Position numbers and translations under genes: made by a program
From: Lingula anatina
Lineage: Eukaryota; Animalia; Brachiopoda
Direction: 5' to 3'
Assembly (NCBI GenBank): GCA_051362555.1
Contig: CM120640.1
Span: 124,001 to 188,000 of the forward strand
DNA: 64,000 nucleotides
Shown: positions 5,524 to 49,757 of the stretch, in pieces
Numbering within the stretch: the first letter of the stretch is position 1
How the letters are laid out: each line of letters begins with the position of its first letter
Notes under the pieces: generated by a model
Seen by the model: the letters and a program-made list of their open reading frames with translations, nothing else
Told to the model about the DNA's origin: nothing
Databases searched by the model: none

Positions 5524-8500
5524 ATGGGATTTGGAAGTCAACTCAGACTACTTCTGTGGAAGAATTTTACTTTGAGAAAAAGACAGCCAGTGAGTAAAAT
5601 ATTTCTTATTTAAATATTGTTTTAATAAAGCTTGCTTTTAGATAATTTACAAACTCATGCCTTTAAACTAAATAGTCTCAAGCAATAATGTATCTTTTGT
5701 GAACATTAAGATTGAACTTCTGAATCTTTACACACATTTTCACCCCTTTTATTTCCAGGTAAATTCTTTTTGTTTCATAAATATAATCTAAGACCATTGT
5801 GTTTCCCTTCAGGTGAGACTGGTGATAGAATTGTTGTGGCCTCTGGCATTGTTCTTGATTTTAGTGTTGGTGAAGACGCGGCAACTCAATGAAGCAAGAC
5901 ATGAATGTAAGTGGATTGATTTGGCAAATGTCAAACCTTATTAACTTGTATTTATGCTGATATCAGAAATAGTGACCTTGGTTACTTGTATATAAGAATT
6001 ACTTAGTTGACTTACTGATATCAGAAAAAGTAAGCTTGCACACTCACATACAAAGTATATAAAAGCCAAACTATTATTGTGTATGGAATGAAAATTTTAT
6101 GTTAGTGTCTCATTTTCAAGTCACTATTAAGGCAGAGTATTGTATGTTTTCAGGTCACTATGAAGGCAAGGCTATGCCATCAGCTGGAGTGCTGCCATTA
6201 TTACAGGGTATTGTATGTTTTCAGGTCACTATGAAGGCAAGGCTATGCCATCAGCTGGAGTGCTGCCATTATTACAGAGTATTGTATGTTTTCAGGTCAC
6301 TATGAAGGCAAGGCTATGCCATCAGCTGGAGTGCTGCCATTATTACAGAGTATTGTATGTTTTCAGGTCACTATGAAGACAAGGCTATGCCATCAGCTGG
6401 AGTGCTGCCATTATTACAGAGTATTATATGTTTTCAGGTCACTATGAAGACAAGGCTATGCCATCAGCTGGAGTGCTGCCATTATTACAGAGTATTGTAT
6501 GTTTTCAGGTCACTATGAAGGCAAGGCTATGCCATCAGCTGGAGTGCTGCCATTATTACAGGGTAATGTATGTTTTCAGGTCACTATGAAGGCAAGGCTA
6601 TGCCATCAACTGGAGTGCTGCCATTATTACAGAGTATTATATGTTTTCAGGTCACTATGAAGGCAAGGCTATGTCATCAGCTGCAGTGCTGCCATTATTA
6701 CAGAGTATTATATGTTTTCAGGTCACTATGAAGGCAAGGCTATGCCATCAGCTGGAGTGCTGCCATTATTACAGAGTATTGTATGTTTTCAGGTCACTAT
6801 GAAGGCAAGGCTATGCCATCAGCTGGAGTGCTGCCATTATTACAGGGTATTGTATGTTTTCAGGTCACTATGAAGGCAAGGCTATGCCATCAGCTGGAGT
6901 GCTGCCTTTATTACAGGGTATTGTATGTTTTCAGGTCACTATGAAGGCAAGGCTATGCCATCAGCTGGAGTGCTGCCATTATTACAGAGTATTGTATGTT
7001 TTCAGGTCACTATGAAGGCAAGGCTATGCCATCAGCTGGAGTGCTGCCATTATTACAGGGTATTGTATGTGGTTGGAACAACACCTGCTCCAGAACTACT
7101 ACAACTGATGAGATCTCTGGACAAGTGCAGACTTTTAACAACTCCTTGTAAGATACACTTTGTTGACTAGATTCTCTTAATTCAACCCCTTTAACAAATC
7201 TATGTACTACACCTTGTTAAATAAGAACACCACTCACAGATTCAGGATTATATAAAGCAGAAGTCACTGGTCATCCCCCTCCCCTAGAGTTCACGCAGAT
7301 AAGGGGGAAGCGTTAGCTTGACGAGGTGAAATAGTATCCTAAGTATTGTTGTTGTAGGCACTGGTGGCCAACATGGGGATTCAGAAACTTCATGTTTTTT
7401 CATGGTTGCTGAGAAAAATAAATGATATTCTCAAGTTTTATCTTGAATATTTAAAGATATCATTCTTGTGTTTTTGTTAATTTAACATATATGGTGCTGT
7501 CTTATTTTTAGGTTATCAAAGCTTTTAGAAGATGTAGAGATGATTTTGAGCAACAGAACAGATATGAATGATATTATTGATTTGATCGAAGATTTTGAAA
7601 TCTTAAACACATTTGCAACTAACATTCAGAGTGGAAACATAGTTGGTAAGTGAAAACATTTTTTTTAATTCGAAGAATTATAACGTTTTATGTATTCCAA
7701 GGATGCTGGTTAAATGTTTATGATGTAAGTTAATTTTTCTACAGTTTTTATTAAATAATCAAATGTTTATTTGTGGAACATTTTCTTCCATAGGTGGGAT
7801 AAAAGTCAGCAATTTCCTGATTGATCCACAGCAACTAAGAGAAGAAGTGGCCAATCAGAACATAGCACTTCAACCGCAAATTGTCAGCGACATTCTCAAT
7901 GCAAATGTCAATATTCAGCAAGTAAGTGAGTGCATGGTGTCTTAAATGATTTAGATAGACTGTCTGATATTCTTATAATAATGAAATGGCTAAATTTTCT
8001 TAGATCATGTTATTCATTAGTTTTTCATACCAAATCATTTTATGCGTAATATTTCAGCTCCTGCGTCAGTCTAGGTTGCCCCTCCCTCAAGCCAGTGTAT
8101 TGAGTAACCTGTCCAACCTGGCAGCTAACCCACAGCAAGCTCTCCAGGACATTCTTGATGGAAATATCAACCCCCTGCAGGTACTCCAGACACTGATAAC
8201 CAGGAACTTACCACAGATTGCACAGGGCATTCAGAGTGGGAGTTTGAATACACAACAGGTGATGATATTTCACATATATTATATTTTAGAACATCCAGAG
8301 TGGGAATTTAAATGCACAACAGGTGATGATATTTCACATATATTATATTTTAGAACATCCAGAGTGGGAATTTAAATGCACAACAGGTGATGATATTTCA
8401 CATATATTTTATTGTAGCTCATCCAGGGTGGGAATTTTAATATACAACAGGTGATGATATTTCACATATATTATATTGTTGTACATGCAGGGTGGGAATT

Positions 8501-47523: not shown

Positions 47524-49757
47524 GGGTCAGGTTAGCCAGGTGCTTGTGGACATGGGGCCAAATCTCATTGGAGTATTTACCTGTGAACTCCATCAGAATT
47601 CCCTTTTTCCTGTAATAAAATAGAACAAGACTGAGAACTGTCTTGGAACAAATGCATACAAGCTGAAGAGAGGACTACATGGAAGGCTGAGAGAACAGAC
47701 CCATTCAGAATAGGGCACTAACTAGTCCCAGGGTCAAATATGGCCAACCCACGTGAATACTTTCCCACAAAATATCTATTCAGTGTCTATTAGCAGATTA
47801 GATGGCAAGCTTTGACCCTCAGACTAATTAGTCCCCTATTCTGAATGGGGCCAATGATAGGCTCTCTATACTAGTCTGAACTCTGTACTACACCACTATA
47901 AACTGAAACTAGTCACAGCACCTATCCTGTCTTTGGGCGCATTCCCATAGATTTTAGATCGATCTATCCCTGTGGGGAGTCTCACTAGATTACTGTCAGA
48001 TAATCTGGCTTAAATGTCCGTCCCGCCTACTACAAGCTGTAAGGGGGGAATTAACTTTCGTGCCCGCTTGGCTGACAGCTATTTAGCATGAACCCCCAGG
48101 GAGTTAGGTCGATCTAGTTGGATCGATCTAATCTCTGGGAATGGGACCTTACTTGTAAAAGTCCAGCACTGGACGGGTTATTTTCTCGTAGGACTCAAGT
48201 CTGGCCCTCACAGTCTCTGGCTTGTCATCATCTCTCTGAACTAAATCTTCACCTGTGACATCATCTTTACCCTAAAACATTGGAAAAAATCAGTTCAAAT
48301 CAATAAAAAAAATATGTCTACAGAGCATGCAGTGCCAATGTGTATGGATTTCAGGCCCGTAGCCAGCAATTTGAAAACAGGGGTTTCTTTTTGTGCAAAA
48401 AAAATGCATCTTTTACCATGAAACCTCCATACAGCTAGATAACACTTTACCCAGAGGGGACCTTTCTCCACCACCCCCCCCCCCCCCTCCCCCCCAGGCT
48501 ACAGGCCTGGATTTTCTTCCCTAGGTTACAAATACGTCAGAAGGTTTATACTCACAGGGACCTTGGGAGGACTGAATTCAGTGTTGTATATTCTTCCACT
48601 GGGCAGATGAACCCATCTATCCTTTACTCGGCCTATGATGATCTCAAAAGGGACATTAAGACTGACCACTGCATTCACAGGTTCTCTCTCCTGCAGAGCT
48701 TCAGCCTGGTGGAGAGTTCTGGGGAAACCGTCCAGAAGCCAAGAAACATCACTCATCTTTTTTAACTCGCTTGAGATCAGTTCCACCATCAGACCATCTG
48801 GCACCAAGGCTCCCTGGTCAATGAACTTTTTAGCCTCCATACCAGCAGCTGATAAAATATAACATACACATATATAATATGATGAATATAGAGATGATAT
48901 CATAAGCACCAAGGCTCCCAGGTCAATGAACTTTTTAGCCTCCATACCAGCAGCTGATAAAATATAACATACACATATATAATATGATGAATATAAAGAT
49001 GTTATCATAGACACTAAGGCCCCCTGGTCAATGAACTTTTTAGCCTCCAGAAGCTTTACCATAAAACGTACAAACAAATCATTAATTAAGAAGATGCTAT
49101 ACACAAAGAACCCATTAACAGCATAGGAACTTATTCATTTTCTTAACACAGACATGAGATGGCTGAGGTTATGTATATCAGGCATGAGTCTTGGTTTCAA
49201 AAAAATCTCTGAACATTTAACATGGGACCCAACACCCAACCGACCGGCAGATCTTGACGAATCTCAGTGACCCTCGGAATTGAATTTAAAAAACGCTGAA
49301 TCCCATGTTTCCGCAGAAAAATGTCATGTCTGGTATATTATGCTAGTATCAATGGTGACGATAAAAAATTAATGAGACTGGCCATGTGAACATTGGCTGT
49401 GTTAATTACCACTATATGAGAGGAGGGTAAGACTGGAAATGGGATTTGAAGAAATGCCTACATTATTTCAGCTATATACTATAATATGCTGCTGAAATAT
49501 ATACCAACTGGTCGATTAATATGATCTACAGACATCGAATACAACTGCATTTGTTGCAATTGGTATTTGTCTCTTTATTGCTTGTGAGTAAAGAGCGTCA
49601 GCTAAAGCGTACCTGTTTTAGCAGATATTTGTGCTCTTAGAAGGTCACCGCTAGACAGATGCTTCAAGCCGAAATCCTTCACAATTCTGTTCGCAATTGT
49701 CCCTTTGCCTGACCCAGCTGCGCCCATAATGATGGCTCGAAACAGATTTCCACTCAT
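47483..49757 (-). CDS. AK3: GTP:AMP phosphotransferase AK3-like adenylate kinase, 227 aa, 4 exons
   Basis: Exons 49757-49613 ([20 protein letters not shown]...HLSSGDLLR), 48848-48556 (WLLDGFPRT...[12 protein letters not shown]), 48271-48153 ([19 protein letters not shown]) and 47609-47483 (...NEIWPHV...YGKGGV*). Phases are consistent; total 684 nt. Confidence 0.93.
47698..47852. mobile_element. MITE in AK3 intron 3
   Basis: Inverted termini cccattcagaataggg and ccctattctgaatggg, with further internal inverted matches. Confidence 0.75.
47935..48148. mobile_element. MITE abutting the AK3 exon 3 donor
   Basis: Inverted termini cattcccatagattttagatcgatc and gatcgatctaatctctgggaatg. Confidence 0.75.
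48352..48509. mobile_element. MITE in AK3 intron 2
   Basis: TIRs caggcccgtagcc and ggctacaggcctg, flanked by gattt on both sides; internal poly-C. Confidence 0.7.
48800..49049 (-). repeat. 105-bp acceptor-spanning duplication (AK3 exon 2), about 2.4 copies
   Basis: ttttatcag|ctgctggtatggaggc at 48953 and 48848. Confidence 0.9.
49179..49332. mobile_element. Candidate MITE in AK3 intron 1
   Basis: caggcatga...tcatgtctg with gtatat on both flanks. Confidence 0.45.

Follow-up and report, generated by a model that had tools for sequence, protein, structure and literature searches.

We present an analysis of a 64,000-nucleotide stretch of the genome of the brachiopod Lingula anatina (NCBI GenBank assembly GCA_051362555.1, contig CM120640.1, positions 124,001 to 188,000 of the forward strand), hereafter the window, to which all positions and statistics given below refer. 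Within it, a 53-exon ABCA1-like gene carries tandem copies of its own exon edge plus intron edge at 24 of its 104 splice boundaries. Boundary-spanning arrays make up 24 of the 30 non-exonic arrays of this gene, against 11.6 expected (P=1.7e-6) under a model that places each unit uniformly on the collapsed gene and excludes exon-internal and whole-exon placements. The stop codons of both affected genes, the ABCA1-like gene and AK3, also carry arrays, at positions that hold no splice site; hence, the relevant edge appears to be the end of the coding DNA and not the splice site. These are splice-boundary ('mirage') minisatellites, and we posit, with a probability of roughly 0.55, that they began as short tandem duplications of a DNA-repair type with a breakpoint in a coding exon, were kept when they ran off the coding edge and were then expanded.

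Boundary arrays and their excess over intron interiors

Arrays were sought with Tandem Repeats Finder (TRF) and an independent self-alignment scan, which gave no above-threshold match in two local shuffles; microsatellites and units below 15 bp were left out of all array counts. Together they recover the arrays at 23 ABCA splice boundaries and at the ABCA stop, as well as the acceptor array and the stop repeat of AK3. Every array listed in an earlier note on this DNA, made from the letters alone (seven ABCA acceptors, 16 ABCA donors, the ABCA stop, the AK3 exon 2 acceptor and the AK3 stop), is therefore present, and a degenerate copy at the exon-18 acceptor joins that list. Exon n of the earlier note is exon n+1 here from exon 9 onward, as it lacked the exon at 9302-9397, which is predicted only. 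Each unit consists of the local exon edge and the local intron edge, as that note had described, and the units of different boundaries are mutually unrelated. Boundary probes count 2-28 copies per array, in agreement with the note; its unit range of 27-105 bp has to be extended to 20-105 bp for the arrays that it listed, with an exon-40 donor unit of about 20-23 bp, and to 20-118 bp overall. The GT or AG is intact in 150 of the 154 decoy copies found by boundary probe, a procedure that favours intact copies. Arrays are found at 16 of 52 donors and 8 of 52 acceptors, a difference that is not significant (P=0.10). The genes and arrays are as follows.

5524..44700, + strand: ABCA1-like gene, 53 coding exons, 2681 aa; hand-built model, with RNA backing for the junctions from exon 36 onward
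47483..49757, - strand: AK3 (GTP:AMP phosphotransferase) gene, 4 coding exons; RNA joints
55211..62339, - strand: SLC6 transporter gene, model of 13 exons; rich in CpG and free of boundary arrays; serves as internal control
6113..7070, + strand: exon 3 acceptor array, 71 bp, 14 copies of the boundary, the farthest of which has lost its AG
8228..8731, + strand: exon 6 donor array, 64 bp x8
10684..10864, + strand: exon 11 donor duplication, 90 bp x2
11217..17594, + strand: intron-12 45-bp array, about 98 copies, from intron base +2; split by a 1.92-kb insertion at 13577-15497; scored intronic
~19390..19590, + strand: exon 18 acceptor/exon degenerate copy, period about 105-118
19901..22592, + strand: exon 19 acceptor array, 94 bp x28
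23184..25142, + strand: exon 20 donor array, 79-101 bp x24, (TC)n(TA)n filler
26464..27645, + strand: exon 24 acceptor array, mixed 53/39-bp units, about 25 copies
27897..28109, + strand: exon 25 acceptor array, about 86 bp x3; AG lost in both decoys
29015..29172, + strand: exon 27 donor duplication, 83 bp x2
29346..29398, + strand: exon 28 donor duplication, 27 bp x2
29924..30055, + strand: exon 29 donor array, 45 bp x3
31648..31783, + strand: exon 32 donor duplication, 66 bp x2
31910..32986, + strand: exon 33 acceptor array, 67 bp x16; 5-nt junction overlap
33040..33186, + strand: exon 33 donor array, 57 bp x2.5; GT lost in decoy
33486..33596, + strand: exon 34 donor duplication, 56 bp x2
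33801..34658, + strand: exon 35 donor array, 96 bp x9
35306..35410, + strand: exon 37 acceptor duplication, 57 bp x2; RNA takes the exon-adjacent AG
36712..36985, + strand: exon 40 donor degenerate array, about 20-23 bp, 8 GT copies; RNA takes the first
37478..38011, + strand: exon 42 donor array, 78 bp x7; RNA takes the first
38919..39150, + strand: exon 45 donor array, 94 bp x3; RNA takes the first
39333..39591, + strand: exon 46 acceptor array, 64 bp x4; RNA takes the last (exon-adjacent)
39639..40044, + strand: exon 46 donor array, 70 bp x5; RNA takes the first; joints at copies 3 and 4 probably reflect short reads that were mis-placed
40333..40439, + strand: exon 47 donor duplication, 56 bp x2; RNA takes the first
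41478..41763, + strand: exon 50 donor array, 65 bp x4; RNA takes the first
44670..44994, + strand: ABCA stop-codon array, 44 bp x7; 3' untranslated region (UTR), no splice site
47410..47495, - strand: AK3 stop-codon degenerate repeat, about 50 bp x2-3
48801..49049, - strand: AK3 exon 2 acceptor array, 105 bp x2.4; RNA takes the exon-adjacent AG

The boundary arrays occupy 11,731 of the 31,131 intron bases of the ABCA1-like gene, and collapsing all arrays together with one insertion reduces its 31.1 kb of introns to 13,041 bases (13.0 kb), with a collapsed median of about 200. The maximum-likelihood excess at boundaries is 7.5-fold (95% confidence interval 3.25-20.75), and removal of two doubtful arrays leaves 22 of 28 boundary-spanning (P=9.5e-6). 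The blind TRF classes in ABCA comprise 21 boundary clusters, seven non-coding ones (one being part of the exon-40 array and one the stop array) and two exonic ones. Among young arrays, defined by a TRF match of at least 90%, 18 of 19 span a boundary, against 7.8 expected (P=8e-7). These figures uphold two proposals of the earlier note, that a recurrent, boundary-biased duplication process inflates the introns and that the purging of exon-internal duplications is by itself insufficient to produce the excess. Its observation that intron-only arrays are rarer likewise stands (six in ABCA, at 10346, 11217-17594, 28444, 31215, 34962 and 44209), yet the largest array is one of them.

A process devoid of mutational bias might have left a comparable picture if random duplications were purged from within exons, if intron-only arrays were lost faster than exon-anchored ones, and if this gene were a lucky extreme. 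With collapsed introns of about 200 bp, approximately 39% of the tolerated placements span a boundary anyway; a 5-fold persistence advantage of boundary arrays fits the full set (P=0.26); and the intron-only arrays, the 45-bp array excepted, are mostly more degenerate (73-87% match). Against this, the young arrays reject equal persistence as well as 2-fold (P=3e-4) and 3-fold (P=0.004) advantages, and give P=0.04 even when a 5-fold advantage is granted. Moreover, correction for the approximately 5,100 windows of the genome, whose size is put at 329.3 Mb in the accessible part of PMC13121700, leaves a P of about 0.01. We accordingly consider this account rather improbable. Given that the gene was picked as extreme and that this P survives the correction, the boundary excess is probably real and its size likely overstated.

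Two observations concern individual arrays. The insertion that splits the intron-12 array (13577-15497) is a 1.92-kb AT-rich segment with a CpG observed/expected ratio (o/e) of 0.85, imperfect inverted ends of about 11 bp and no open reading frame (ORF) beyond 76 codons, and is likely to be a non-autonomous DNA transposon of recent origin. At 217-540, upstream of the ABCA start, lies a 46-bp x7 array whose unit has an acceptor-like ...TTTTAG followed 14 nt later by a donor-like GTTAGG; it could be the boundary array of an unannotated upstream exon.

Splicing and assembly across the arrays

According to the earlier note, the spliceosome must pick one correct site among up to 28 near-identical ones. 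We considered RNA reads from four runs of three studies that bear the same species label and derive from other animals, whose arrays may differ; they were compared with the regions 34700-49100 and 37420-41900 (15 of 31 joints listed for the first region and all nine joints passing the filter for the second, with run X18 in both). The exon-adjacent authentic site is used at nine of the nine array-bearing boundaries covered, a set in which no array exceeds eight copies and outside which 16 of the 25 boundaries lie; the choice among sites looks solved by default there. The authentic site drew 11 reads at the exon 37 acceptor, 20 at the exon 40 donor, 18 at the exon 42 donor, 12 at the exon 46 donor, 11 and then 26 at the exon 47 donor, and 22 at the exon 50 donor. 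The authentic joint between the exon 45 donor and the exon 46 acceptor is backed by 2, 5 and 20 reads in 34700-49100 and by 21 and 35 in 37420-41900, and the AK3 exon 2 acceptor by 72 reads in run X15, with the exon-1 end at 48851. At acceptor arrays, branch-point scanning predicts the far copy and the exon-adjacent one is used, which makes them a test case for exon definition with introns of about 200 bp. Over 37420-41900, runs X18 and X19 each show about 48 fixed exon differences from the window, far more than X12 or X15, which suggests that they come from a diverged population under the same species label.

These results bear on the idea that the decoys are functional and were selected for alternative splicing, regulation coupled to nonsense-mediated decay, or new exon pieces. 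Unit anatomy was tabulated for 22 of the 24 ABCA boundary arrays, leaving out those of exons 18 and 40. The preserved GT or AG of most decoys would agree with the idea, as would the three of 22 nearest decoys that yield in-frame, stop-free inserts, and the human 6-16 and cystathionine beta-synthase (CBS) minisatellites are described as leaking to pseudo-sites in the accessible text of PMC1557585. Nevertheless, RNA uses the authentic sites, the splice signal is lost in both exon 25 decoys, the exon 33 donor decoy and the farthest exon 3 copy, and the units share no sequence with each other. Unit length is in frame in nine of 22 cases, about the chance level, and selection for frame preservation was rejected for want of any such signal. 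Functional selection thus appears extremely unlikely.

The contigs of three DNA runs speak to the integrity of the assembly. In run X2, contigs end inside the arrays of exons 35, 42, 45 and 47 and of the stop and AK3, and a single 2402-base contig passes the exon-37 and exon-40 repeats gap-free; relative to the window, X2 shows 53 substitutions and 19 gaps over 2922 mostly intronic bases. Run X7 represents another haplotype (17 differences in 1135 flank bases), and its contigs break at the arrays of exons 42, 45, 46, 47 and 50, with one 124-base contig consisting of the intron-derived exon-45 unit. Those of X1 also break at arrays, X1 being near-identical to the window and hence no independent support. 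Summed contig depth, which is not copy number, gives a hint of more copies in X7: it is 317 in X7 and 92 in X1 at the exon-45 array, and 730 and 269 at the exon-50 array, over baselines of about 85-110. An assembly artefact would gain some room from the absence of any spanning long read among the data seen and from short-read contigs giving no copy number. However, copies carry distinct variants and fall into sub-types, and all three runs, one of them from another haplotype, have contigs that end at these arrays and include unit sequence derived from the intron, which makes an artefact unlikely; we judge its probability to be negligible. For the arrays in 34700-49100, it is already largely refuted.

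Template, coding edges and proposed origin

Among 52 exon-exon junction probes, no genuine match was found in any unit (one matched, at a real acceptor only). The template was hence genomic DNA, and a processed, cDNA-derived insertion was rejected on the same ground. Units are exon-heavy: the median is 36.5 for exon bases and 25 for the others, and exon sequence makes up over half of the unit in 16 of 22 cases (Wilcoxon P=0.04, binomial P=0.052); the exon-derived piece in each decoy is truncated (median about 37 nt) and has no partner site, while the true exon stays intact with one authentic adjacent site. Inner copies are homogenised and edge copies diverged, a pattern of concerted evolution. 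Divergence is greatest in the farthest copies of the exon 3 and exon 33 arrays, and the decoys of exons 6 and 42 resemble one another and differ by 4-6 changes from the true exon.

Junction overlap was counted in 16 arrays with clean junctions, six more being left out because of partial extra copies (exons 19, 24, 33-donor and 46-donor) or gaps (exons 25 and 45). Overlaps of 4-5 nt are seen at three, the exon 32 donor and the exon 33 and 46 acceptors; three others are near-flush (0-1 nt), and ten have filler or an altered far flank. Inspected by eye, the exon 35 and exon 37 fillers are copies of sequence close by, and exon 20 has a (TC)n(TA)n run as filler. That the microhomology proposed in the earlier note is general is therefore not supported. 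Of its examples, 'ataat' (exon 33 here) stands, and 'gtattgtatgt' (exon 3) and 'atacag' (exon 20 here) are better taken as the exon-derived part of the unit, since the far intron flank lacks them.

The same note had envisaged a boundary-focused process, perhaps slippage linked to transcription, R-loops or nucleosome edges. In a version aimed at splice sites as such, co-transcriptional splicing complexes or R-loops would break or slip DNA there. Consistent with this, the affected genes are expressed, and in six of 22 units the intron part beside the splice site is just 3-8 bases long. However, the arrays at both stop codons have no splice site to target, array-bearing donors are no closer to the consensus than others (6.4 versus 6.6 of 8 positions), so that donor strength does not predict arrays, and the units bear no signature of a spliced-RNA template. 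We hold such targeting to be very unlikely.

CpG o/e is 0.14-0.36 in ABCA and AK3, and reaches 0.60 in the exons and 0.89 in the introns of SLC6. A low CpG o/e commonly serves as a proxy for methylation of gene bodies. Arrays are found at 25 of 110 boundaries of the CpG-depleted genes and at 0 of 24 in the CpG-rich SLC6 gene (P=0.007, with a single control gene), whose exons are equally GC-rich. Mosaic methylation with methylated housekeeping genes has been described in annelids and molluscs, as far as the accessible portions of PMC8330077 and PMC8549274 go. At about 50000-52000, upstream of AK3, the CpG o/e switches abruptly from mostly <0.3 to 0.6-0.9, as is typical of a mosaic methylation boundary.

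The preference for coding edges could also stem from recombination between homologous chromosomes in an outbred, polymorphic animal, if repair from the homolog slips or re-anneals out of register where conserved coding DNA meets divergent intron or UTR. Such a process would cover stop-codon and splice-edge arrays alike, and the haplotypes differ visibly, as the X2 contigs attest. It nevertheless predicts arrays at the SLC6 exons, which have none, and a divergence of about 2% is a mild barrier to homology; we regard it as unlikely, if the most credible of the rivals.

Under the reading that we favour, coding exons of genes that are CpG-depleted, probably body-methylated and constitutively transcribed would more often supply a breakpoint for duplications of 20-120 bp, through a seed route such as staggered-break repair or template switching. 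Tandem genomic duplication, by which introns have reportedly been gained, is a candidate mechanism for such seeds, and boundary duplications reportedly can create introns in principle; the cases described, however, concern plants or single events, and no new intron is shown in the Lingula gene. Duplications lying wholly within an exon would be purged, and those crossing the edge would be tolerated, keeping the exon intact while the decoys hold truncated exon pieces. Truncated flanking exons reportedly disfavour a duplicated splice site. The first donor would be picked by first-come choice, as in human F7, and the last acceptor by exon definition. Two-copy seeds would thus be nearly neutral and would probably expand and homogenise through slippage or unequal exchange, the largest resulting arrays having 28 copies; the Adh3 mirage of amphioxus is reportedly unstable in the soma.

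Several points weigh against this reading. The gene was chosen for its extreme appearance, and the largest array in the window, the 45-bp array of intron 12, has been scored against the boundary hypothesis despite starting at intron base +2. Junction microhomology is weak, with 3 of 16 at 4 nt or more (P ~0.06). The methylation link comes from one control gene and takes CpG depletion as its proxy. On the exon side, breakpoints lie no closer to a CpG (median 55.5 nt) than do random positions in exons (38 nt), and the exon parts that were duplicated hold few CpGs (4, with 9.7 expected). A direct model of nicking at methylated CpGs was rejected on the position of the breakpoints, and the link, if real, would be to the chromatin or transcription state and not to single CpGs. 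As to the RNA, a depth of about 5-35 reads per junction and run would hide decoy use below about 10%, the individuals differ from the one assembled, with many fixed differences in X18 and X19, and no 13-28-copy array is covered.

Finally, at exon 46, the true donor drew 12 reads, and 16 (8+8) were assigned to copies 3 and 4 of the donor array. Genuine decoy use there was considered and set aside: the shorter arms of the latter reads measure 54 nt or less and fit within the 62 nt derived from the exon, which favours mis-placement, although the table is no proof. All 25 RNA reads over 39679 carry the decoy allele and not that of the exon in the window, and donor copy 2 is covered by three reads where use of copies 3 and 4 would need 16. 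These joints are most likely read mis-placements, and they exemplify how arrays of this kind lead astray both gene prediction and the mapping of junctions from short reads.

A bolder extension, which we advance tentatively and think more probably wrong than right, is that mirages are the surviving fringe of a strong process seeding duplications in the coding exons of body-methylated genes, such that in Lingula, and probably many marine invertebrates, about a quarter of the coding edges of those genes are hit and unmethylated genes are spared. If true, a large share of intron length would come from this process, and it would offer thousands of natural experiments in which the spliceosome chooses among up to 28 identical sites. 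The roughly 7-fold excess at coding edges, with none in the adjacent CpG-rich gene, suggests that short duplications spring from a source linked to chromatin or transcription, and it implies a hidden load of purged exon-internal duplications.

Gene models, other repeats and known systems

The ABCA1-like model has AG and GT at every internal boundary and an ORF of 2681 aa free of internal stops, and over the C-terminal ~1,800-2,000 aa its product shares about 48-52% identity with vertebrate ABCA1. Exons 10-12 encode one fibronectin type II domain each (Pfam PF00040, E 1e-16 to 1e-19) in three successive phase-1 exons at 10104-11215, within the first extracellular region of the transporter; this domain was listed for none of the ABCA matches in a search limited to proteins of up to 2000 aa, and a homolog search of the same limit with exon 9 (9302-9397) gave no match. 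An 87-nt exon at 43073-43159, missing from the model of the earlier note, is backed by RNA, and a possible further exon near 42525 (42525-42580) has an in-frame stop and might be an alternative end. AK3 exon 2 is 98% identical to Lingula anatina AK3, the next match reaching at most 74%. Intron 3 of AK3 holds a very high-copy element at 47935-48145, with X2 summed contig depth in the tens of thousands and many loose ends, and a separate inverted repeat at 47700-47849; both are likely to be miniature inverted-repeat transposable elements (MITEs). A long palindromic, CpG-rich, MITE-like element lies at 2050-2330, its inner arms (2122-2185 and 2199-2262) being 92% complementary.

That the boundary arrays are a new phenomenon is not supported. 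We found no report on Lingula or on genome-wide enrichment of boundary arrays in literature that excluded supplements and most subscription papers, and the main text of the Lingula genome paper, in its accessible part, mentions no tandem repeat, minisatellite or intron (PMC13121700). The type of element has nevertheless been described before. The accessible parts of PMC3087553 and PMC3902484 document 'mirage' minisatellites in amphioxus, in Adh3, the globins BflGb6 and BflGb9, troponin C and PGBD5. Like the Lingula arrays, these are tandem copies of exon-intron boundaries at 5' or 3' sites, mostly retaining AG or GT, with normal splicing, homogenised inner copies and divergent edge copies, and the Lingula units of 20-118 bp fall within the 10-160 bp given for amphioxus (PMC3087553). 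As far as the same sources go, the amphioxus cases are single loci with neither an enrichment test nor a CpG link described, whereas in this brachiopod 24 boundaries of one gene are affected, along with stop codons. Human variable-number tandem repeats that span an exon and an intron are known from F7 intron 7 (37 bp), CBS intron 13, lamin B2, PDGF intron 4 and IFI6/6-16 (PMC1557585, accessible text). There too, the first monomer spans the donor and many identical pseudo-sites follow, the most upstream being chosen by 5'-3' scanning; these human repeats are isolated and, in the accessible text, all at donors, whereas the Lingula pattern is gene-wide and includes acceptors. Thus, the element type is known, and what the Lingula arrays add is its density, the formal test of enrichment, the stop-codon arrays and the contrast between CpG classes of genes.

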